A stretch of DNA of 48,410 nucleotides from positions 1-48,410 of the IMG/VR virus record IMGVR_UViG_2531839667_000010. One strand, 5' to 3'. The first letter of the stretch is position 1. Each line of letters opens with the position of its first letter. Below the pieces are notes generated by a model. The model ran no database searches and was not told where the DNA came from. It worked only from the letters and a program-made list of their open reading frames with translations. Positions 165-47,456 of the stretch are shown here, in pieces. This DNA is from a virus (taxonomy: Duplodnaviria > Heunggongvirae > Uroviricota > Caudoviricetes). Made by a program: the position numbers and the translations under genes.

Positions 165-407
165 TTAGTAACGCCAGCGGTCATAACGCTGATATTTCGG
201 CACTTTTGGTGCTTTAATCGCCCTGATCACCCACACCACCGCAACCGCCAACAGCAGCCACGGCAGCAACTTAATCATCAATGCCAGCATACCGCCGAGG
301 AACATAAAGGCCGTCGCCACAATCAGCGCGGCGATAATACCCAGCAACGAAACACCGGTGACCATCAGCATGACAAAAAAGCCAATTACAAAAAGTAGTT
401 CCAGCAT
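165..407 (-). CDS. pspG: Phage shock protein G (small inner-membrane protein)
   Basis: 80-aa hydrophobic product starting MLELLFVIGFFVML, matching my recollection of E. coli PspG, which neighbours dusA. The listed ORF 165..617 is an upstream over-extension. Confidence 0.85.
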   Translation of the reverse strand: MLELLFVIGFFVMLMVTGVSLLGIIAALIVATAFMFLGGMLALMIKLLPWLLLAVAVVWVIRAIKAPKVPKYQRYDRWRY

Positions 408-440
408 GATGCTCTCCCAAATATGAAATCTCTTACTGGC

Positions 441-458
441 ATTACAAGAATCATGCCA
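441..458 (-). promoter_or_regulatory. Putative sigma-54 (-24/-12) promoter of pspG
   Basis: Minus strand reads TGGCAT-N5-TTGTAAT about 35 nt upstream of the pspG ATG; psp promoters are sigma-54 dependent. Confidence 0.4.
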
Positions 459-480
459 AAAATAATCTATTGATTTAACA

Positions 481-510
481 GCAAAACGCCCTGCGACGGG
501 GCGCAGGGCG
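481..510 (-). terminator. Rho-independent terminator downstream of dusA
   Basis: Perfect 9-bp stem cgccctgcg/cgcagggcg with a 6-nt loop, followed on the minus strand by TTTTG. Confidence 0.55.
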
Positions 511-540
511 TGGTGAATTTGACTACTTTTTGGTGAAAAG

Positions 541-1578
541 TTAACGCTTATCCGCCACCAGTTTGAGCGCGTGTTCCAGCACATTAATGTCTGCACCCGC
601 TTTATGGGCATTTTCACTTAAATAACGCCGCCACTGCCGCGCGCCAGGAATACCCTGGAACAAGCCCAGCATATGCCGGGTAATATGGCCGAGATACGTA
701 CCCTGGCTGAGTTCACGCTCAATGTACGGATACATGGCGCGCACTACCGCCACCGGATCAGCATCAGTATCCGAGGAACCAAAAATCTCTCGGTCTACCG
801 CCGCCAGAATCCCCGGATTCTGATACGCTTCGCGCCCGACCATCACGCCATCCATATGTTGCAAATGCGCTTTAGCCTCTTCCAGCGACTTGATGCCACC
901 GTTAATCGACATCGTCAGATGCGGAAAGTCACGCTTCAGTTGATACACACGCGGATAATCGAGAGGCGGGATCTCACGGTTTTCTTTCGGACTTAACCCA
1001 GAAAGCCAGGCTTTACGTGCGTGGATGATGAACATCTCACACTCACCTTTGCCGGAAACGGTGTTGATGAAATCGCAGAGAAATTCATAGCTGTCCTGAT
1101 CATCGATGCCAATACGCGTCTTCACCGTCACCGGAATCGACACCACATCGCGCATCGCTTTCACGCAGTCGGCAACCAGCTGCGCATTACCCATCAGACA
1201 CGCACCAAACATGCCGTTCTGCACCCGGTCAGACGGGCAGCCGACATTCAGGTTGATCTCATCGTATCCACGCGCTTCTGCCAGCTTCGCACACTGTGCC
1301 AGCGCCGCCGGATCACTACCCCCGAGTTGCAACGCTACCGGATGTTCTTCTTCACTGTACGCCAGGTAATCACCTTTACCGTGAATAATCGCCCCTGTGG
1401 TCACCATTTCGGTATACAGCAACGTATTGCGGGAAAGCAGACGCAAGAAATAGCGGCAATGTCTGTCCGTCCAGTCGAGCATAGGAGCAATGCTAAACCG
1501 AGAATTCCAGTAAACACCAGTTTTTTCAGGCATCACGCTGGTTTGATTAATTTTTTGTGTTTCATGATTATCGTGCAT
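541..1578 (-). CDS. dusA: tRNA-dihydrouridine synthase A
   Basis: 345-aa ORF with the Dus/TIM-barrel flavoenzyme pattern ([19 protein letters not shown]); near-identical to my recollection of E. coli DusA except the first ~30 residues. Confidence 0.95.
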
Positions 1579-1666
1579 TTTTGAACATTTCAGGCTATTT
1601 TTCTCGCGTTAGGTTCCCGCACAGGTTCCCACGTTTTATGGGAACCCGAAATAACGAGGTCGTGTA

Positions 1667-2764
1667 ATGGCGTACTATAACATAGAGAAACGACTAAAAT
1701 CCGATGGCACACCACGCTATCGCTGTAATGTGATTATCAAAGAAAAAGGTGTTATCACTTACAGGGAAAGCAAAACATTCCCTAAACATGCTCATGCCAA
1801 AACATGGGGCACACAGAAAGTGATGGAATTAGATCTATATGGCATTCCATCATCAAATGCAGTTGACGGACTTACAGTCCGTGACTTACTACACAAATAT
1901 TTAAATGACCCAAATGCCGGAGGTAAAGCAGGCCGTACTAAAAGATATGTGCTGGAACTGCTTATGGATAGTGACATCTCCGCGATCAAACTATCTGAAC
2001 TGACAGAAAATGACGTAATTGAACATTGCAGGCTAAGAAACAACGCTGGTGCAGGTCCAGCTACAGTTAGCCACGATGTTAGTTATCTTGGCAGTGTTCT
2101 GGATGCTGCCAAACCTGTATATGGAATTAATTACACATCAAACCCAGCAAAAGCCGCTCGTCCATATCTACTTAAACTTGGTTTAATTGGTAAATCAAAC
2201 CGTCGTAATCGTAGACCAGCATCTGATGAACTGGACATGCTCATTGAAGGCCTTCAACAACGATCTACTCATAAATGCTCAAAAATTCCGTTCGTTGATA
2301 TCCTCAAATTTTCTGTGTGGTCCTGTATGCGAATCGGAGAAGTATGCCGGTTACGATGGGAAGATCTCGACCAGGAACAAAAATCTATACTCGTAAGAGA
2401 CAGGAAAGATCCACGCAAAAAGGAAGGCAACCACATGAAAGTAGCCTTGCTTGGGGAAGCCTGGGATATCGTCCAACGACAGCCCCAAAAATCGGAATTC
2501 ATTTTTCCATATAACAGCACTTCTGTTACTGCGGGATTTCAGAGGGTAAGAAGCAAATTAGGTATTAAGGATCTGCGATACCATGATTTGCGTAGAGAAG
2601 GGGCAAGTCGCTTATTTGAGGCTGGTTTTAGTATTGAGGAAGTAGCCCAGGTTACAGGGCATCGTTCATTAAACGTGCTATGGCAGGTATATACCGAACT
2701 GTATCCAAAATCTTTACATAATCGTTTTGAAGAGCTCCAAAGGAGCAGAAATAAGATCTCTTGA
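1667..2764 (+). CDS. int: Tyrosine-type phage integrase (dusA-associated arrangement)
   Basis: 365 aa; C-terminal catalytic region with LRYHDLRREGASRL (H-x-x-R) and GHRSLNVLWQVYTEL (Tyr nucleophile); divergent from and immediately beside the dusA 5' end. Confidence 0.9.
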   Translation: MAYYNIEKRLKSDGTPRYRCNVIIKEKGVITYRESKTFPKHAHAKTWGTQKVMELDLYGIPSSNAVDGLTVRDLLHKYLNDPNAGGKAGRTKRYVLELLMDSDISAIKLSELTENDVIEHCRLRNNAGAGPATVSHDVSYLGSVLDAAKPVYGINYTSNPAKAARPYLLKLGLIGKSNRRNRRPASDELDMLIEGLQQRSTHKCSKIPFVDILKFSVWSCMRIGEVCRLRWEDLDQEQKSILVRDRKDPRKKEGNHMKVALLGEAWDIVQRQPQKSEFIFPYNSTSVTAGFQRVRSKLGIKDLRYHDLRREGASRLFEAGFSIEEVAQVTGHRSLNVLWQVYTELYPKSLHNRFEELQRSRNKIS

Positions 2765-2812
2765 CACTGTTTATCCATACAGTTAAAAATAATACTGTAT
2801 ACAAACACAGTA
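2761..2812 (+). promoter_or_regulatory. SOS-regulated promoter with two LexA boxes
   Basis: TTGACA at 2761-2766 with TAAAAT about 17 nt downstream; two CTGT-N8-ACAG motifs (ctgtttatccatacag 2767-2782, ctgtatacaaacacag 2795-2810); AGAGGGA Shine-Dalgarno before the ATG at 2826. Confidence 0.6.
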
Positions 2813-2825
2813 TAGAGGGACTTTT

Positions 2826-3044
2826 ATGCGTATTGAAATCTGCATAGCCAAAGAAAAAATGACTAAAATGCCAACCGGTGCTGTGGATGCGTTAAAGGAA
2901 GAATTAACCCGACGCATCAGTAAACGTTATGACGATGTAGAGGTGATCGTAAAAGCCACCAGCAACGATGGCCTTTCTGTTACACGCACCGCAGATAAGG
3001 ATTCTGCAAAAACTTTTGGGGTATTCGGGATAAGTAGTTGTTGA
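2826..3044 (+). pseudogene. dinI: DinI-like protein, 5' portion, interrupted by an IS after codon 64
   Basis: [31 protein letters not shown] resembles the DinI N-terminus as I recall it; the frame runs into IS sequence at 3019 and ends with unrelated residues. Confidence 0.7.
3011..3018. repeat. Target-site duplication (left copy), AACTTTTG
   Basis: Identical 8-mer directly flanks the IS at 5679-5686. Confidence 0.65.
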
Positions 3045-3095
3045 AAACCTTTTGATAAGATCTGCAATTCATTTTTATAGACGGTGAAAGTTGTT

Positions 3096-3123
3096 GTTGA
3101 CCTCCTGATCGGATTCCTATACT
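3096..3123 (+). promoter_or_regulatory. Putative sigma-70 promoter inside the IS
   Basis: GTTGAC(C) then TATACT; spacer 15-16 nt, so sub-optimal. About 250 nt upstream of the ORF6N gene. Confidence 0.3.
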
Positions 3124-3369
3124 GTTTGTCTCACGAGGCGTAGAAACCTCTCCAAAAGCGGTCCGAACCAACCCCGATAGTGTTGGATTTTTTATGCCTG
3201 TTATTCAGTGATTGCACTGTATGCGGTCACACCCCGATCAATGTCGGGAGGGCGACGAATACAACACCCAGCGATGGGGAATAAGTTCGCGGTATCTTTT
3301 GGGCCGTTTCTAACCTCCCGACACCCACTTATGTGGATTTCCGTAGAAAGAAACCAAAAGAGGTCAGTC

Positions 3370-4262
3370 ATGACTAACCATTCTCCAGTAGAAAGCCTGC
3401 CAGTTGTTACCTATAACAGCCTCCCGGTGATCACCACCGAACTGCTGGCAAAACTCTACAATACCGAACCCAAATACATTCAAACCAACACGGCGCGTAA
3501 TGAATCACGTTTCGTTGCTGGAAAGCACTTCTTTAAACTGGAAGGCACTGAATAAAAGACTTTAAGAACAGACCATCTTCAAGAGGGTTAGTTGGTTCTC
3601 GCGCTCGTAGCCTTGTTCTCTGGACGGAGCGCGGTGCCGCTCGCCACGCCAAAATGCTCGAAACCGATCAGGCGTGGGAAGTGTTCGAAAAGCTGGAAGA
3701 CTTCTATTTTAGCCAGAAGGAAAAGGCCGAGCAGATTCGTAAGAATCGCCAGTGTACAGCTACCCAGCTTATCCCGCTGCGCCAAACGGCAGAACGGTTA
3801 ATCACGACAGGCCTCGGCAAAATCTATCCCGACATATGGAAGCTGGTTCATCAGCGCTTCGATGTTGAGCATATCCACCAGTTGCAGCCTGAGCAGGTCG
3901 GTGAAGCCATCGAGTATCTGAACGTGCTGGAAGGTGAGTACCTGGGGCGCGAGACGCTTCCGGCAACCCCATCAGTGCATTTCACCAACGAGGAGCTTTG
4001 CGCTCTCTGCTGGGTATGGAATGCCGCCGAATACATGCGGGAGAAGATAGAGCTGGCCTATCCCGCAATGAAAACTCTCAAGTCTGAATACGCACCGAGC
4101 TTCTACTCAATGGCATTTGAGTATCAGCGAACACTGGAAGCCGGTAGAAAGGTTCTCGAACGGGAAACAAAACACATCGTTCCGCATCCTCACAGCGTGT
4201 CAGATGAAAACTGGCGGCGAGTCCTGCCTCGTCTGCGCCAAAATAGCTTACCTCGCGGATAA
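3370..4262 (+). pseudogene. ORF6N-domain (antirepressor-type) protein gene with a frameshift near 3550
   Basis: N-terminal frame (ATG 3370, GAGG Shine-Dalgarno) ends FFKLEGTE at TAA 3553-3555; a second frame continues ...SLVLWTERGAARHAKMLETDQAWEVFEKLEDFYF to 4262, matching my recollection of the ORF6N family; consistent with loss of one T at ctgaa-t-aaaag. Confidence 0.55.
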
Positions 4263-4276
4263 TAAGGGACAAAACG

Positions 4277-5599
4277 ATGAGCGAGATTGCACCAACGAGC
4301 CTGTTACACCCTCTGAAAGCTACCGTTCTGGATTTTCAGGAGGATGAGCACGACTATCAGTTCAAGGTTGAATACCCGGAGCCGACCTGCTGCCATGCCT
4401 GCGGTGCAGTGTCTGACATCATCCGCTTTAACAAAAAGCTGGTGAAGTACCGGGATGTTCCCATGCACGGGAAGCGCGTCACGCTCTGGGTCGTAACACG
4501 CCGTTATCAGTGCAAATCATGCAAAGGCACATTCACCCCGGCCATCCCCGAGATGGCCGAAGCCCACCGCATGACAAAGCGCTGCTATCAGTACATCATT
4601 AAACGTGCGCTGACCGGCACTAACGCCAGCGTCGCGCAAGATGTTGGCTTTGATGAGTCCGTCACCCGTGGGGTCATCAAGTCCTACTGCGAGCAAAAGG
4701 CGAAGACCTATAAGCCTGTGCTGCCGCGAGTGCTGGGCATTGATGAGCTGTACCTGAACAAAACCTTCCGCTGTGTCCTGACCAACATCGAGCAGGGAAC
4801 CATTATTGACATACTGGAATCCCGGCAAAGTAACGTCATCTACAACCGTCTGGCGCATATGGAAGGCCGTGAGAACGTGCAGATCGTCTGTCAGGATATG
4901 TGGAAGCCATACCGTGACGTTGCCAGCCAGCTATTCCCTAAAGCCAGCATCGTCGTTGACCGCTTCCATATCCAGCGCATGGCTAACGAGGCGATGGAAA
5001 TGCTGCGTAAGTCGCTCAAAAAGGATCTGACAGTACACCACCGACGGCAGCTTAAAGGCGACCGTAAGATGATGTTGATGCGTAAGCGTGACCTTAACCC
5101 TATGCAGCAGATGATTATCGAAACGTGGCTGGATCACTATCCTGAGTTGGGTCTGGCCTATCAGCTCAAGGAAGAGTTCTTTGATATCTGGCTGGCACAG
5201 ACTGAACCTGAGGCCAGAATGCGCTATCAGAACTGGCTGGCAAAGATACCCGAGCATCATAAAAAGCACTGGAAGCCGCTGATAACATCCATGACGAACT
5301 GGGAGAAAGAGATATTCGCCTACTTCGGCCCGGCCCAGCGGAAGACCAACGCCTTTACGGAATCCATCAACCGCAAGATGCGCGATCTGAACCGTGATTC
5401 GCGCGGAATGTCCTTTGAGATGTTCAGGGCTAAAACACTGTTCACTCTCAAGCATAAGTTCAGCAAGCCTAAACCAGTGAAAGAATCACCGTTCACGGTT
5501 GGCTATGTCACCGCTGGTTCGTGGGATCTGGATGATGAAATCCGGGACGATTACGGCGTATCTATCGACGCTATTCTGGAATCCAAAATCGGCGAATAA
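4277..5599 (+). CDS. ISL3-family transposase
   Basis: 440 aa; N-terminal zinc-finger/HTH pattern (CCHACG ... [10 protein letters not shown]) typical of ISL3 transposases; sits between ISL3-like terminal repeats with an 8-bp duplication. Confidence 0.75.
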
Positions 5600-5678
5600 A
5601 TAGCCGCCAACAACACACCCATCATTTTCCATTTAACGGGGTTCGGGATGTCCTAACAACAGGATTTCCCGAATACCC

Positions 5679-5686
5679 AACTTTTG
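5679..5686. repeat. Target-site duplication (right copy), AACTTTTG
   Basis: Identical to 3011-3018. Confidence 0.65.
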
Positions 5687-5742
5687 TTCAGGAGACTCTG
5701 AAAGATACCTGGGAATCTGCTGACGAGTGGTTTGTTCACTAA
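5687..5742 (+). pseudogene. dinI: DinI-like protein, displaced 3' end
   Basis: Joining 3018 to 5687 gives ...[23 protein letters not shown]-stop, resembling the conserved DinI C-terminus. Confidence 0.6.
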
Positions 5743-5885
5743 TTAACACGTAAAATCGGTAACGGCTGGAAATCATTCAATACTCGCACTATCGAAAGTT
5801 CGCCAGCCAGCCGCAGCACGTTCTTGCATACGACGTGGCTGCGGCTTCCAACATTAGACAAATAACTCTTTAAATTGCTTTTAAA

Positions 5886-6449
5886 TTATTTCGTTTGAAT
5901 GCCAGTAACAGGAAATCGTTTATATAGGGTTGATAGCCCAACGTTATAGATACGTGCAACATAACGCCGTGATTTCCCTGCCGCTATGAGCGCTCCCATC
6001 TGTTGCCACTGCTCGTCGCTAAACTTCGGTCTACGCCCACCAATCCGGCCTTTGGATCTGGCAATAGCCAAACCAGCTAAAGTTCGCTCGCTATTCAAAT
6101 CAGATTCATACTGCGCAGCAGAAAGAATATTACGGAAATTATAGCGACCACTTGCTGTTTTCAGGTCTACGCCATCTGTAATACTGCGGAAGTTGATACC
6201 CTTTTCCTGTAACTGCTGGAACATCAACAGCGCATGCAGAACGTTGCGGCCTATCCTGTCCAGCTTCCAGACCACCAGTTCATCCCCCGGCTGCATAGTG
6301 GCGATCAGCCGTTTTAGAACCGGCCGATTCGATTTCCTCCCGCTGGCATGCTCTTCAAAAATTTTCTCACAACCCGCTGACTTGAGCGCCGTTAGTTGCA
6401 ATTCAGTGTCCTGGTGGTTTGTTGATACTCGGGCATAACCGTAAATCAT
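5886..6449 (-). CDS. Serine recombinase / DNA invertase (Pin/Gin/Hin family)
   Basis: 187 aa from MIYGYARVSTNHQDTELQ (catalytic Ser region) with a C-terminal HTH; AGGAG Shine-Dalgarno. The listed 278-aa ORF is an upstream over-extension. Confidence 0.85.
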   Translation of the reverse strand: MIYGYARVSTNHQDTELQLTALKSAGCEKIFEEHASGRKSNRPVLKRLIATMQPGDELVVWKLDRIGRNVLHALLMFQQLQEKGINFRSITDGVDLKTASGRYNFRNILSAAQYESDLNSERTLAGLAIARSKGRIGGRRPKFSDEQWQQMGALIAAGKSRRYVARIYNVGLSTLYKRFPVTGIQTK

Positions 6450-6501
6450 GGGATTTCTCCTGTTATGAAAACAGGAGAAACGGCGAAGCATCACCAGATT
6501 T

Positions 6502-6972
6502 TTGATGGTTATAAAAAAGGTTGGTTTGGGAGAAGGCTCTGCATTACCTGTTGGTGTCCCTGTTCCGTGGCCTTCAGCTACGCCGCCAACAGGCTGGCTG
6601 AAATGCAATGGCGCTGCCTTTGATAAGGTTAAATATCCCCGTCTTGCTACAGCATATCCATCAGGGAAACTACCTGATCTCCGCGGTGAGTTTATTCGTG
6701 GCTGGGATGATGGGCGCAGCATTGATACAGGGCGTGCTTTATTGAGTATTCAGAGTGATGAAGTCAGAAAGCTCGCATTAAAATACTGGGGACCAGCTTC
6801 AAACAGTTCACCATCAAAAACATTTGCACTCAGCGACAGTGCCGGTGGCGGGTTGTACACGGATGGAATAAGTCAGGCAAGCGGTGGGATTATCAACGCT
6901 TTTCAGCTCCCTGGCGGTAACGAAACCCGCCCACGAAATGTTGCATTTAACTATATCGTGAGGGCTGCATAA
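6502..6972 (+). CDS. Alternative tail-fibre C-terminal cassette, currently in the silent orientation
   Basis: No ATG (the frame opens after TGA 6466-6468); carries the conserved tail-fibre C-terminal motif PWPSATPPTGWLKCNGAAF...DLRGEFIRGWDDGR; preceded by a crossover site that shares reading phase with the expressed fibre. Confidence 0.6.
   Translation: MMVIKKVGLGEGSALPVGVPVPWPSATPPTGWLKCNGAAFDKVKYPRLATAYPSGKLPDLRGEFIRGWDDGRSIDTGRALLSIQSDEVRKLALKYWGPASNSSPSKTFALSDSAGGGLYTDGISQASGGIINAFQLPGGNETRPRNVAFNYIVRAA
6509..6534. other. Invertase crossover site (hix/gix-like), left
   Basis: TTATAAAAAAGGTTGGTTTGGGAGAA; its reverse complement TTCTCCCAAACCAACCTTTTTTATAA resembles hix and shares 14 bp with the right site. 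Confidence 0.6.
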
Positions 6973-7574
6973 TGGATAATGCTGTATTAAATAGCGAGTT
7001 TATTGCCACGAAGGCGGGGAGTATTACCGTCTATAACTATGATAGTGAAACACGGGAATATATTTCCACGTCAACTGAATATCTTGCTGTGGGTGTCGGT
7101 ATTCCGGCATGTTCCTGTCTTGATGCACCTGGCATACATAAGGTTGGTTATGCAATCTGTCGTTCTGTGAATTTAAATTCATGGGAATATGTGCCAGACC
7201 ATCGCGGTGAAATCGTCTATAGCACCGAAACAGGAGAATCAAAAGAAATCACAGCTCCGGGTGATTACCCTGAAAATACAACCACTATCGCCCCTTTATC
7301 TCCATACGATAAATGGGATGGTGAGAAATGGGTGACCGATACTGAGGCACAGCATAGCGCCGCAGTAGACGCGGCAGAAGCACAGCGCCAGTCACTGATT
7401 GATGCTGCTATGGCTTCCATCAGTCTGATTCAACTGAAATTGCAGGCCGGACGGAAACTGACGCAGGCAGAAACAACCCGACTTAACGCCGTGCTGGATT
7501 ACACTGACGCGGTGACGGCAACAGATACCAGCACCGCGCCGGATGTCATCTGGCCTGAACTGCCGGCGGCGTAG
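6972..7574 (+). CDS. Tail fibre assembly protein (partner of the silent cassette)
   Basis: 200 aa; C-terminal ...LNAVLDYTDAVTATDTSTAPDVIWPELPAA pattern typical of Tfa chaperones; immediately follows the alternative fibre cassette. Confidence 0.7.
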   Translation: MDNAVLNSEFIATKAGSITVYNYDSETREYISTSTEYLAVGVGIPACSCLDAPGIHKVGYAICRSVNLNSWEYVPDHRGEIVYSTETGESKEITAPGDYPENTTTIAPLSPYDKWDGEKWVTDTEAQHSAAVDAAEAQRQSLIDAAMASISLIQLKLQAGRKLTQAETTRLNAVLDYTDAVTATDTSTAPDVIWPELPAA

Positions 7575-7998
7575 GCCATTTAATATCTGGCGCACCGGAA
7601 GTATCGACCAGTTCCAGTGCGTCCAGATAATCCAGCCACAGATTATATTGCGCCAGTTCCTCGCCTTTCAGACGACCAATAGCCGCTTTACCAGGCCATT
7701 GTTTACTGTTCATATAATCGTTGGCCTGATTAATTAGTAGCTGTCTTTCTGATTCAGTAATTTCAATAAGTTCTTCATGCGTAGGGGCAGGAATATCCGC
7801 CCACGCGGGCAGCCCATCACCTCCGGCAATACGGATTTTTCCTTGTGGCGGTTCAGCCATAAATTCACTGATAATATTTTGACTCACCTCCTTAGCATCT
7901 GATAAATCCCATCCCTCTGATTTATATTTATCAATCATATCCACAGGGAAAAAAGCATTATGCCTTGCGCTATAAACATATTCGTTCATATAAATCAT
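7546..7998 (-). CDS. Tail fibre assembly protein (expressed orientation)
   Basis: 150 aa; C-terminal ...LDYLDALELVDTSGAPDIKWPTPPAV Tfa motif; convergent with the other tfa, as in invertible G/C-segment systems. Confidence 0.7.
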   Translation of the reverse strand: MIYMNEYVYSARHNAFFPVDMIDKYKSEGWDLSDAKEVSQNIISEFMAEPPQGKIRIAGGDGLPAWADIPAPTHEELIEITESERQLLINQANDYMNSKQWPGKAAIGRLKGEELAQYNLWLDYLDALELVDTSGAPDIKWPTPPAVQAR

Positions 7999-8009
7999 CC
8001 TGAATAAAA

Positions 8010-8858
8010 TTATTCACCAACAGCCCACCAACTGTAAATCATTGACACCTTGTCGCTGGTTGATGCAGTTCTGTAAGCAGAATTAAAGCCGGTTAATGTT
8101 GGGCCTTCTACGGACATAACGAATCCACGCCCTGCACCAAAAGGCGCACCGCCATCGCCAGAATGGGTAAGAATGGCGATATCCGCTTTTTTAGGGAAAG
8201 GGATAGGAAATGTAATCCTCATTGTTTGCGTCGATAATTTCGGCATAGCCTCACCTCGACCATATTGCAGGATTTTCCCGTTGGGTAATTTCATCCATCC
8301 ATCACCACTGGCAAACGAGGCCATGTCCGGTATCTGATTTTCCCCTGTCCCCACATTCCGTTTTGCCGCTTCTCCCAAACCAAGGTTTGTGCGAGCGTCT
8401 GCGGCATTCGTTGCGCCGGTTCCGCCGTCTGCGACAGTAACCGCACCGTTGCTCCCTTTCTGCGCAAGTTTACCGATGCCAGGGATGGTTACGGTGGTCC
8501 CGTTGATGGTAACTGTGATGCTTTGGTTTGCTGAGGTAGTGGCGAACGTCTCCCACGCGCCAATGTTCTCGTCATACTCTTTGATGAGCTGCGACATTGC
8601 CTGGGCCAGTCCGTCCACGGAGATAATGTCTGACACCAGAATGGCGTATTTCTGGCCGCTCAGCGCCGGGGAAGCGGCAGGCGTAACCGTCATTGACGTG
8701 GCGCTGTTCACGGATGAAATCTGGAACAGTTGCACCGGGTTAGACATCACGATAATTGTCTGCCCAGCGCGAACCTGGCTGGCGGGAGCTGTCCAGTTTG
8801 TGCCGGAGCCGGTTGCGGTATTTCCTTTAATAGAGATAGTTCCGGTGCTATAAATCAT
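8010..8858 (-). CDS. Side tail fibre protein (constant N-terminal part fused to the currently selected variable C-terminus)
   Basis: 282 aa; a crossover site lies in-frame at 8370-8395 (encoding ...TNLGLGE...). Confidence 0.8.
8370..8395. other. Invertase crossover site (hix/gix-like), right, inside the tail fibre gene
   Basis: TTCTCCCAAACCAAGGTTTGTGCGAG; inverted relative to the left site; same codon phase (GLGE) in both contexts. Confidence 0.6.
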
Positions 8859-8935
8859 AACAACTCCTAAATTTAGACAACATGAAGCCCGGAGAGGTAT
8901 ATAACCATCACCAGAAATAATTTCTGAATTGGTTT

Positions 8936-9238
8936 TTAATACATGTTGGGCAACGCCAGTGTTGGCATAGCTATAGTTGTATCAAATGCCATTGACCACC
9001 CACCCCAATAATAATTGCCGACTACTTTATTCCTTTCCGCTATGACATTCCCACCTGTCATTACAATTCCTTTATACCTAATATTTCCGTAACCACCAAC
9101 GTGTCGACAGTTAGCCCCGGTATAAACAATCTGGCAAAATTCATCACCAATATTCAGGTTCGCATTGTCGATATTTATTGTCCCATCAAAAATGAATGGC
9201 TTCGTGCAAGTAAGAAGACGTTTGCGTTGACGATTGGT
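8936..9238 (-). pseudogene. Start-less remnant of a tail-fibre/tailspike-like gene
   Basis: About 100 open codons with no start codon between stops, encoding ...GTINIDNANLNIGDEF...GGNVIAERNKVVGNYYWGGW..., a repetitive beta-rich pattern. Confidence 0.3.
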
Positions 9239-9363
9239 TTATTCAATCCATCAACTAAAATACCATGTAAACGAATTGCCATAACATTTCCCACTTTATT
9301 TTACTTACTCAACACAACAAGTATATTAAAATTGAACCTTGTCAACAACACAAAGGAGTCCCA

Positions 9364-9597
9364 ATGAAACTCGCTCTAATTATGCTGCCATTATGTCTGT
9401 CCCTCACTGCATGTGGTAATGGTTTAAATACCGGTAAACCAAATTCCGGTGTCATTCCAAAACCTTTGGATCGAGATGGTAACGGTTCTTTAATTTATGA
9501 TACCGAAAACCTTCCAATGACGGGGCAGTGGTGTCACGAGATTGATCACGAATACCGACGAATCGGTAGCCCTTCTAACTGTGTTATAGACTACTAA
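9364..9597 (+). CDS. Small lipoprotein, Cor-like superinfection-exclusion candidate
   Basis: 77 aa with signal peptide and lipobox LTAC; strong AAGGAG Shine-Dalgarno; antisense to the tail operon just downstream of J, where cor sits in phi80/N15/HK022-type phages as I recall. Confidence 0.5.
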   Translation: MKLALIMLPLCLSLTACGNGLNTGKPNSGVIPKPLDRDGNGSLIYDTENLPMTGQWCHEIDHEYRRIGSPSNCVIDY

Positions 9598-39568: not shown

Positions 39569-40725
39569 TTGCGCCCCCTTACCTCTGAAGAGTTCAGCGA
39601 CGAATGAATAAGACGGGCAAGAAATGCCGCATCGTTAATTCGGTCATACAGACTTACAGCCAGCGGTGATTCAGCTTTTTCCAGCATGGGATAAAGCTGC
39701 TGCAACCAGACCTGATGAATTGATGAAATGTAGGAATAGAGAACGCTGGCGTTATGTGCAACGTCGCTCAGTACAGAGGGATTTGAAAGCTGTTTCTCCA
39801 TCTGGTTAAAGGCATTGATGTATGCCTCTTTGAACCGGGCAGCACGTTTACCAGTGAAGCCCATAGCAAGGAACGCGAAGCCATCGCGGGTTATTTGATA
39901 GCAAGGTAGTTTGCGAGTACCGCCGTTGGGCTGGCGTACCAAAATTGATGTCTCCGCAAAATTGCGGGCACAAAACTCTGGAGAACAATCCAAAATGCGA
40001 ATCTTTTTCAGAACATCGTCATGACGTTTAGAGAAGAAGTCAGCAACAGCCAAAGAAGATGTAACAGCCTGACCATCAACGATGGCAATTTCAGGTTGAG
40101 AGAGGGTTGGGACAGTAGCCATGATGGCAGCCTCCGTATGCAATGGATAACTTCCACCACCGGAAACGCCAATTTCGCTGGTGGTGAACTGAGCAGGGTT
40201 GGCGTAACCGGCGCATACGGAAACCGGCGCACCTTTCGGTGCCCCCACCCAGCCCACCATAATTTGGGTATAGCTGAGTTGTAGCAACAAAAAAGACGCT
40301 AACGCGCCAATTGTCGCCGTATGCAATTCCAGGACGCCAATCCCGGCACCCGCTTTATAAGGTGCCTGAACAGTGTAACGTCCCGGAATGGCAGAATCAA
40401 TGTGCTGGTGGTCCTTCACACTCAACAAAATCACGCCTGAATTTCCACAAAGGACTAAAGCACTCATGCGGGTAGTCTTTGCGAAGATAGATAACGCGCT
40501 GTGTTTCTGGCTCCCAACGAATAACATGGACATAAAGCCCTCTTCCGTCACGAAACCAGCGGTTAAGTTCCTGCACAACTCGCCCCCCACAGTCAGGTAA
40601 AGTTCTCTGTGGTTACTTACAGCCAGGTGATTTGGTAATCTGCATTCATGCCGTAACAACAGGTGTTCAGCGACGCTGACCACCAGCTGTTGCGACAAAC
40701 GGTTATTTGCCGTTAAACTGTTCAT
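39565..40725 (-). CDS. Rha-domain phage regulatory protein (start uncertain)
   Basis: Rha-type domain (...IVDGQAVTSSLAVADFFSKRHDDVLKKI...) in residues about 205-300. The longest ORF starts at 40725, coupled to the upstream stop; an internal ATG at 40121-40123 with a GGAGG Shine-Dalgarno would give a 186-aa Rha protein. Confidence 0.55.
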   Translation of the reverse strand: MNSLTANNRLSQQLVVSVAEHLLLRHECRLPNHLAVSNHRELYLTVGGELCRNLTAGFVTEEGFMSMLFVGSQKHSALSIFAKTTRMSALVLCGNSGVILLSVKDHQHIDSAIPGRYTVQAPYKAGAGIGVLELHTATIGALASFLLLQLSYTQIMVGWVGAPKGAPVSVCAGYANPAQFTTSEIGVSGGGSYPLHTEAAIMATVPTLSQPEIAIVDGQAVTSSLAVADFFSKRHDDVLKKIRILDCSPEFCARNFAETSILVRQPNGGTRKLPCYQITRDGFAFLAMGFTGKRAARFKEAYINAFNQMEKQLSNPSVLSDVAHNASVLYSYISSIHQVWLQQLYPMLEKAESPLAVSLYDRINDAAFLARLIHSSLNSSEVRGRK

Positions 40726-47147: not shown

Positions 47148-47456
47148 GTGCAGCCGGTTTTGATGGAGAAAATTATGAACACCTTGTTTTTACTGATGGC
47201 TGAATTCAATACCCCTAACATTGAACTCTCAGCAGTTAGCCAAAAGTACTTTGGCATGAGTCCAGCCACGGCAGAAGCAAAAGCAAACGCTTGTAAGTTG
47301 CCCGTTCCAACATATCGCATCGGCACATCACAAAAAGCAAAACGTTGCATCAATATTCAGGATCTTGCGGAATACATAGACAAAAGACGAGAAGAAGGAC
47401 GTATCGAGTGGGAACAGGTCAGAACAGGCAAACAGAAGGGCAAAGAACATCACTAA
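47148..47456 (+). CDS. PrtN/AlpA-like small DNA-binding protein, possible excisionase
   Basis: Likely start at ATG 47175 (GGAG Shine-Dalgarno), about 93 aa; resembles excisionase-like PrtN-family regulators as I recall; last gene of the pL operon. Confidence 0.5.
   Translation: MQPVLMEKIMNTLFLLMAEFNTPNIELSAVSQKYFGMSPATAEAKANACKLPVPTYRIGTSQKAKRCINIQDLAEYIDKRREEGRIEWEQVRTGKQKGKEHH

Follow-up and report, generated by a model that had tools for sequence, protein, structure and literature searches.

Our analysis indicates that positions 1400-1666 of the window (the whole stretch of viral DNA analysed here, 48,410 nucleotides long) form the attL of a lambda-like prophage of about 47 kb that a tyrosine recombinase has integrated into the 5' end of dusA, and we give this reading a probability of about 0.9. 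The junction within dusA, its crossover core, the phage origin of the new 5' end and the family membership of the integrase are all established at the level of sequence comparison. An earlier reading of the raw letters (the sequence-only reading) had called the intragenic prophage junction correctly, and the main outcome of our work is its confirmation. Because of the family match and the published work on dusA-associated integrases (DAIs), on phage Phi1720a-02 and on the excision factor RdfN, we regard that interpretation as supported and the system as one already described. Indeed dusA integration is well documented, the integration system of the window is near-identical to that of an experimentally characterised phage, and our additions to what was known are only the architecture of putative arm-type sites and a probable element origin of the K-12-type dusA 5' end. 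The features at issue are the following.

541-1578, minus strand: dusA, 345 aa (Pfam Dus, 350.8 bits, residues 30-340; NCBIfam DusA, 581 bits)
541-1474, minus strand: chromosomal dusA, the B arm (host side) of attL, codons 35 (third base) to 345 plus stop
1475-1482: attL core/overlap TCGAGCAT, codons Met33-Leu34-Asp35, ORF nucleotides 97-104
1483-1578, minus strand: phage-supplied replacement dusA 5' end, codons 1-32
1579-1666: divergent spacer, the P' arm of attP, exactly 88 bp between dusA and int
1667-2764, plus strand: dusA-associated tyrosine integrase (int), 365 aa, with Pfam Phage_integrase PF00589 at residues 189-346
47176-47456, plus strand: rdfN-like excisionase gene (PrtN family), Pfam PyocinActivator PF11112, E=3e-23, near the attR end

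The integrase adjoins the dusA start and is divergent from it, the two genes starting at 1578 (minus) and 1667 (plus), and the spacer of 1579-1666 measures precisely the 88 bp that the sequence-only reading had given. The DusA reading frame of 345 aa is unbroken and carries a complete Dus domain by the Pfam and NCBIfam profiles. The GC content is 37.5% in the replacement 5' end (1483-1578) versus 53.9% in the body of dusA. The spacer must hold the int promoter and probably also the one from which the chimeric dusA would be transcribed; experiments on a Vibrio dusA element have demonstrated a new dusA promoter located in the element itself (PMC8409611). A scan of 1350-1750 for sigma-70 promoters and terminators returned no consensus promoter and no terminator, and no RNA family in Rfam matched 1400-1666.

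How does this dusA compare with the gene in genomes where the site is empty? We searched window positions 400-2800 by megablast against 5,426 complete E. coli genomes. All 5,426 contain a match to dusA, and in 734 (13.5%) the match continues through the integrase next to it; the occupants of dusA include Stx phages. In the other E. coli genomes the match either ends at about 1491 with about 98% identity or extends to 1581 at lower identity, and the unoccupied genomes present two kinds of empty site (attB), a Nissle type and a K-12 type. In Nissle 1917 a 331-aa dusA abuts zur directly; in O157:H7 PA20, which is K-12-like, a DUF2713 gene (yjbM) lies beyond dusA. The gene body is 97.7-98.8% identical to dusA of prophage-free E. 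coli, and identity falls in the first 90 nt of the ORF, where 74/90 positions agree with the K-12 type and 34/90 with the Nissle type. At the protein level, the 9 amino-acid differences from the K-12/O157-type DusA are confined to residues 3-30, with residues 31-345 unchanged, in line with the sequence-only reading, which had placed the divergence within the first 30 or so residues; relative to the Nissle type the N-terminus (MPAESHTVYPAYRFS...) is unrelated up to residue 26.

The crossover point emerges from an alignment of attL (the window), attP (the AH02 phage circle and mEp460), attR (strain AH04 and an O68:H12 strain) and both kinds of attB. The four arrangements read, in turn, ...GTCCGTCCAG-TCGAGCAT-AGGAGCAATGC... 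for attL, ...GGTACATCCTA-TCGAGCAT-AGGAGCAATGC... for attP, ...GGTACATCCTA-TCGAGCAT-TGGTGCAACGC... for attR and ...GTCCGTCCAG-TCGAGCAT-TGGTGCAACGC... for the K-12-type attB. Thus attL joins the left flank of attB to the right flank of attP through TCGAGCAT, and attR joins the left flank of attP to the right flank of attB through the same bases. The 8 bases of TCGAGCAT are the only ones common to attL, attR, attP and the K-12-type attB, both flanks being diagnostic, and the four-way pattern therefore places the crossover within TCGAGCAT, at 1475-1482. The core thus occupies codons 33-35, inside the range of codons 30-45 in which it had been expected. The blast match between the window and the AH02 phage circle begins exactly at 1475, and unoccupied genomes match attR from precisely the first base of the core onwards. 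Within the core, the overlap is probably the 7-bp TCGAGCA, and the location of the core fits the insertion point 100 bp into dusA and the 7-bp core that PMC6328086 gives for Phi1720a-02; in attP this heptamer is flanked by the inverted sequences TCCTA and TAGGA, which look like core-type half-sites.

The Nissle-type attB core (L001 2576-2583) is TCAAGCAT, one base off TCGAGCAT (window 1475-1482), and this site still holds prophages with the same P arm, but less often. When we built in silico the attR expected for a Nissle-type attB, we found it in 20 real genomes, at a best identity of 99.6%. A complete attR occurs with a K-12-type fragment in 337 genomes and with a Nissle-type fragment in those 20, these being raw counts across lineages for one P-arm type.

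The new 5' end comes from a phage. Window positions 1475-3018 (a 1,545-bp stretch) are 98.4% identical to the circular phage of strain AH02, and in the attP of that circle a dusA 5' fragment of 104-105 nt adjoins int (NZ_CP081704.1 17733-17837); the fragment encodes 35 aa that are 100% identical to the protein of the window. The attP of mEp460 has the same layout of dusA 5' fragment, spacer and integrase, with a near-identical fragment, the Yersinia phage YeP3 is arranged as mEp460 is, and a dusA-like fragment ending ...APMMD is likewise present in the attP of the distant phages AH2, NK-7 and JBD90. Both the alignment of attP and the phage-borne fragment thus agree with the earlier claim that the element supplies a replacement for the start of dusA. 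The AH02 'plasmid' (NZ_CP081704.1, 43,680 bp) represents an entire phage genome in circular form, its attP intact, and strain CT01 has a like record, a circular 43.7-kb phage (NZ_CP081794.1). Both assemblies list the phage circle beside a chromosomal copy integrated at dusA; the circle is an assembled excision or replication intermediate.

At the other end of the prophage, the last 5.1 kb of the window are 99.9% identical to the AH04 chromosome, to the very end of the window. In AH04 an incomplete tRNA-dihydrouridine synthase, lacking its C-terminus, lies about 145 bp beyond the corresponding point, followed by yjbM and zur; this is attR. An incomplete dihydrouridine synthase fragment likewise closes the prophage of O68:H12 strain 97.3, which shares 100% identity with the window across 1500-3018 and 97.5% across 20.7 kb of late genes. 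No second dusA fragment or long direct repeat occurs within the 48-kb window, which by the AH04 comparison stops about 145 bp short of the attR core. The E. coli genome collection holds no end-to-end match to the window, the best match over 1400-9400 covering 58%.

The integrase itself belongs to a large and well-studied family. It is 99.7% identical to that of Phi1720a-02, 98.4% to that of mEp460, 68% to that of Yersinia phage YeP3 and about 34% to those of Burkholderia AH2, Ralstonia NK-7 and Pseudomonas JBD90, and 116 phage records match it at E<=1e-30. A cross-species scan with one genome per species yielded 52 loci with related integrases at 43-99% identity, in Kosakonia, Xenorhabdus, Serratia, Proteus, Shewanella, Vibrio, Pseudomonas and other genera. 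In 37 of these 52 loci dusA lies directly upstream and divergent, and in about 30 loci of other genera the dusA ORF starts about 88 nt from the int start, so that the spacer length is conserved as well. The catalytic residues R222, K247, H306, H332 and Y342 are invariant in the family alignment and R309 is nearly so.

The DAI family was defined from over 200 genomes by Farrugia 2015 (NAR, PMC4482086), where mEp460 and AH2 are named as members; these elements replace the dusA 5' end and keep the original one at the opposite junction, attL and attR forming semiconserved direct repeats, and PCR demonstrated their excision circles. The integrase of the window is a tyrosine recombinase homologous to the DAIs of mEp460 and AH2 and lies divergently at the dusA 5' end. 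For Phi1720a-02, Balasubramanian 2019 (PMC6328086) described insertion 100 bp into dusA with a 7-bp core, an in-frame 'Phi-dusA' fragment carried by the phage, and a requirement of int for attP formation. Durand 2021 (PLoS Genet, PMC8409611) identified RdfN, of the PrtN family, as the excisionase (recombination directionality factor) of dusA-specific elements.

We propose that integration proceeds as follows. The attP bears, beside int, a surrogate dusA start made up of 32 codons and upstream signals, and strand exchange within TCGAGCAT joins this surrogate in frame to host codons 33-345. The in-frame fusion therefore leaves DusA intact at 345 aa. The original 5' end, with its promoter, would be moved to attR, about 145 bp beyond the window, and past 48410 we would expect to read ...GGGTTCCCAATAGGCTCCCAC...ACATCCTA-TCGAGCAT-TGGTGCAACGCTAAACC (or, for a Nissle-type site, CGGGGCAATCGAG) and then yjbM or zur. 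Excision would require Int together with the PrtN-like RdfN encoded at 47176-47456. If the genome continues as it does in AH04, the prophage is about 47.1 kb long and the rdfN-like ORF lies about 1.1 kb from the predicted attR core. In practical terms, one prophage boundary is set to the base (1475-1482), the other is predicted about 145 bp past the contig end, and int and rdfN are marked as the candidate excision pair.

Mobility of this prophage is an inference from sequence, and the junction could instead be a fixed relic that no longer excises, in the way of the older element that we suspect behind the K-12-type dusA 5' end. An insertion sequence of the ISL3 family sits inside the prophage, the contig ends before attR, and the K-12-type genomes suggest that dusA junctions can fossilise. 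However, int is full length with all catalytic residues and rdfN is intact; the module of int and attP shares 98.4% identity with its counterpart in a phage seen as a free circle in both AH02 and CT01; the last 5.1 kb match AH04, where a complete attR follows, at 99.9%; and the insertion sequence is located in an accessory dinI-like gene. We thus consider a fixed relic unlikely and take the junction as the attL of a prophage that may still excise.

The sequence-only reading had also pointed to GGTTCCC repeats in the spacer, two direct and one inverted, which could be arm-type integrase binding sites. The repeats are present as described:

1612-1618, plus strand: putative arm-type site P'1, GGTTCCC, from repeat and comparative analysis
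1624-1630, plus strand: putative arm-type site P'2, GGTTCCC, 12 bp from P'1
1640-1646, minus strand: putative arm-type site P'3, inverted GGTTCCC, a copy found inverted in many lineages

The heptamer occurs only 6 times in the entire 48 kb, and 3 of these copies sit in the spacer. Since six copies are about what chance would give for the window, it is the clustering that is noteworthy. Only 10 of 20,000 shuffles of the 88-nt spacer produced some 7-mer in three non-overlapping copies, counting both strands; a statistic that also counted overlapping or low-complexity words (3.2%) proved too lenient and was replaced by this one. A structural role in DNA or RNA was considered as well and rejected, because a hairpin that pairs the inverted repeat with the second direct one is not unusually stable (z = -1.39).

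We also compared the repeats across the family. The spacer keeps a common architecture, with two direct copies spaced by 12 bp near -56 relative to the int ATG and usually an inverted one near -27. Of 42 family loci, 29 have an exact direct pair of at least 7 nt at a spacing of 10-13 bp, versus 2.6% of random 95-nt windows. The motif changes with the lineage and the layout is kept: the equivalent of GGTTCCC is CAGCACCCC in Izhakiella, Xenorhabdus, Serratia and YeP3, GTAGCAC in AH2 and TTGCTAC in JBD90, and other lineages have CAGCACC(CC), GTACACC, GGACACC, GGTATCC or GGTGTGC. Moreover, the P' motif recurs as a pair in the P arm in 5 of 5 lineages with a readable attP, whose integrases are about 35-100% identical, and in four of them the pair is 11 bp apart. 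Measured from the core, the pair lies at -61/-50 in mEp460 and the AH02 circle, at -62/-51 in YeP3, at -82/-71 in AH2 and at -81/-70 in JBD90; in the GGTTCCC lineage the copies at -61 and -50 are GGTTCCC and GGCTCCC and span 44-61 bp from the core. The same layout of two plus three repeats, each time with its own motif, is also seen in YeP3, AH2, NK-7 and JBD90, and the P' motif of one lineage is mostly absent from the P arms of the others, save where motifs are near-identical.

A natural chimera bears on the same question. Over residues 121-340 the integrase of Xenorhabdus hominickii (locus L024) shares 95% identity with another Xenorhabdus integrase, whereas residues 1-56 and the spacer resemble those of a different lineage; the GTACACC repeats go with the N-terminal module rather than with the catalytic domain. 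Because the sites adjoin the 5' end of int, such co-inheritance is partly expected, so that this case is consistent with arm-type sites and is not an independent proof of them. In Escherichia sp. MOD1-EC7003 (L007 2440-2480), whose integrase is 99% identical, GGTCCCC/GGGGACC replaces GGTTCCC/GGGAACC; the same change is found in the second direct repeat and in the inverted repeat, at 2 of the 3 sites.

What would read these sites? The N-terminal 60 aa of the integrase are predicted to form three strands and a helix (pLDDT 87.5), and this modelled beta3-alpha arrangement would be the fold class of AP2/GCC-box DNA-binding domains. A fold search with the N-domain model did not retrieve the N-domains of lambda Int and Tn916 Int, and Foldseek against the PDB gave no significant hit for it. 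The N-domain sequence matched nothing in Pfam or among PDB sequences, the sole match being a weak Int_N at residues 72-165; a single-sequence AlphaFold model of the whole integrase reached a pLDDT of 40 and was uninformative. The three P'-arm copies of GGTTCCC would then be bound by the integrase N-terminal domain, and the P-arm pair would complete a lambda-like intasome of two plus three sites. The copies in the spacer may also autoregulate int, since they lie 21-55 bp upstream of its start codon.

That same position is what one would expect of a promoter or operator, and it raises the possibility that the repeats are operators for another protein, either RdfN or a regulator of int or dusA, in which case the junction would still be real. 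Direct repeats are common targets of excisionases, and RdfN diverges between lineages as the motif does (PMC8409611). Against operators stands the arrangement itself: the same motif flanks the core on both sides in a two-plus-three layout like the P1-P2 and P'1-P'3 sites of lambda, whereas excisionase sites are normally confined to one arm. In addition, in the chimera L024 the motif tracks the N-terminal module of the integrase, and the integrase has a predicted extra N-terminal beta3-alpha domain of a DNA-binding fold class. We accordingly regard operators for another protein as decidedly improbable and the reading of the GGTTCCC repeats as putative arm-type sites as likely; the earlier suggestion to that effect gains support from the covariation on both attP arms.

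The literature that we searched contains no description of arm-type repeats in DAI elements: the term 'arm-type' appears 0 times in PMC4482086, and elsewhere we found only general mentions. The lineage-specific layout of two plus three repeats is thus an addition to the account of Farrugia 2015 (PMC4482086), and it provides a testable map of putative arm-type sites for a widespread integrase family, which is modestly useful. One may picture a lineage-specific arm-site code in which a domain of about 55 residues at the N-terminus would recognise a motif of 7-9 bp, present in 2 P and 3 P' copies, and in which natural recombination could swap that domain along with the adjacent sites.

The second addition concerns the empty site. 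The K-12/O157-type dusA 5' end is found in 4,379 of the 5,426 E. coli genomes (about 80%). Over 122 nt it shares 85% identity with the surrogate carried by the phage, and the gene has the same length of 345 aa. Beyond this 5' end, the K-12-type locus has a weak remnant of an int start (17/20 nt) and then a 1.6-kb segment of 34.5% GC with yjbM/DUF2713 that is absent from Nissle-type genomes. The stretches concerned are the following.

L002 2560-3100, L005 5287-6982 and L001 2576-2724: stretches compared for the proposed K-12-type fossil; the homologous part of the window is 1483-1600

On this comparison within E. coli, the K-12-type 5' end looks like the fossil of an older dusA-targeting element, the native 5' end being apparently the unrelated Nissle type. 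The 'E. coli DusA' with which the sequence-only reading compared the protein, which is of the K-12 type, thus probably has an N-terminus left by an older element. Taking both additions together, we lean slightly towards a joint picture in which DAIs use a lineage-specific arm-site code and in which the K-12-type dusA 5' end and DusA N-terminus are non-native, a fossil whose integrase has decayed. The suggested element origin of the K-12 DusA N-terminus matters for work on DusA start sites, expression and structure.

The homology between the K-12-type 5' end and that of the window, 85% over 122 nt, is also the one point in favour of regarding the divergent 5' end as allelic variation or homologous recombination between E. 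coli lineages beside which an integrase merely happens to lie, a reading that we reject as having next to no probability: the same 104-nt fragment lies inside phage attP with its other side fused to phage DNA (AH02, mEp460), identity changes at the very base where phage homology ends, related prophages carry the displaced fragment at their far end, and the four-way att alignment agrees.

Set beside known systems, the prophage is closest to Phi1720a-02, an Stx2dact phage (KF030445) residing in Citrobacter rodentium dusA (PMC6328086). Both insert about 100 bp into dusA, restore the frame with a phage fragment, carry int beside attL and are lambdoid elements of about 47 kb. The core length is reported as 7 bp for Phi1720a-02, compared with the 8 bp of shared identity that we find. 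Unlike Phi1720a-02, the window contains no stx genes that we noticed, its late and tail regions are mosaic, it has an ISL3 insertion, and its host is E. coli with a K-12-type attB. With the DAI family as a whole (PMC4482086) it shares the divergent tyrosine integrase, the element-supplied 5' end and a PrtN-like gene, and, judging by the attR of AH04 and of O68:H12 97.3, presumably the semiconserved attL/attR repeats; we see no essential difference. As in IMEVchUSA3 with its RdfN (PMC8409611), the target is dusA and a gene for a PrtN-family excisionase lies across attP from int; IMEVchUSA3, however, is an IncC-mobilisable island with AcaCD-controlled rdfN, whereas here we have a lambdoid prophage whose induction signal is presumably SOS/repressor based. 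The likeness to lambda Int and its attP lies in the short overlap, the two P and three P' sites next to int (putative here), a separate N-terminal DNA-binding domain (predicted here) and the need for an excisionase. The differences are that the N-domain shows no detectable sequence similarity to that of lambda Int, that P'3 has the opposite orientation, and that integration occurs within a coding sequence, with attP bringing a fragment that repairs the gene, as in phage 21 and e14 at icd.

Several other features of the prophage deserve mention. Relative to related prophages the window has a 2,660-bp insertion at 3019-5678, 255 bp downstream of int, which is an insertion sequence of the ISL3 family with 12-bp terminal inverted repeats GGGTATTCGGGA and an 8-bp target duplication AACTTTTG at 3011-3018 and 5679-5686. 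It interrupts the dinI-like gene of the prophage (2826-3044) and carries, besides its transposase (4277-5599), passenger genes for ORF6N-domain and P22 antirepressor C-terminal-domain proteins. The element occurs at full length in only 2 of the 5,426 E. coli genomes, and one of these two matches it at 13 places. Its insertion shows some decay of the prophage. In its passenger region, just upstream of the antirepressor-like ORFs, Rfam sRNA-Xcc1 is matched at 3243-3330 on the plus strand (62.6 bits, gathering threshold 53). In the early region of the prophage, on the minus strand, Rfam C4 antisense RNA (40177-40264, 80.7 bits) lies side by side with isrK (40289-40365, 61.2 bits), and this pair points to an antisense-RNA immunity or antirepressor control module of the P1/P7 type in a lambda-like prophage. 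Finally, a serine invertase of the Hin/Pin type (5886-6722, minus strand; Resolvase and HTH_7) adjoins alternative tail-fibre assembly genes at 6972-8858, as in related prophages, and together these genes probably form a host-range switching module.
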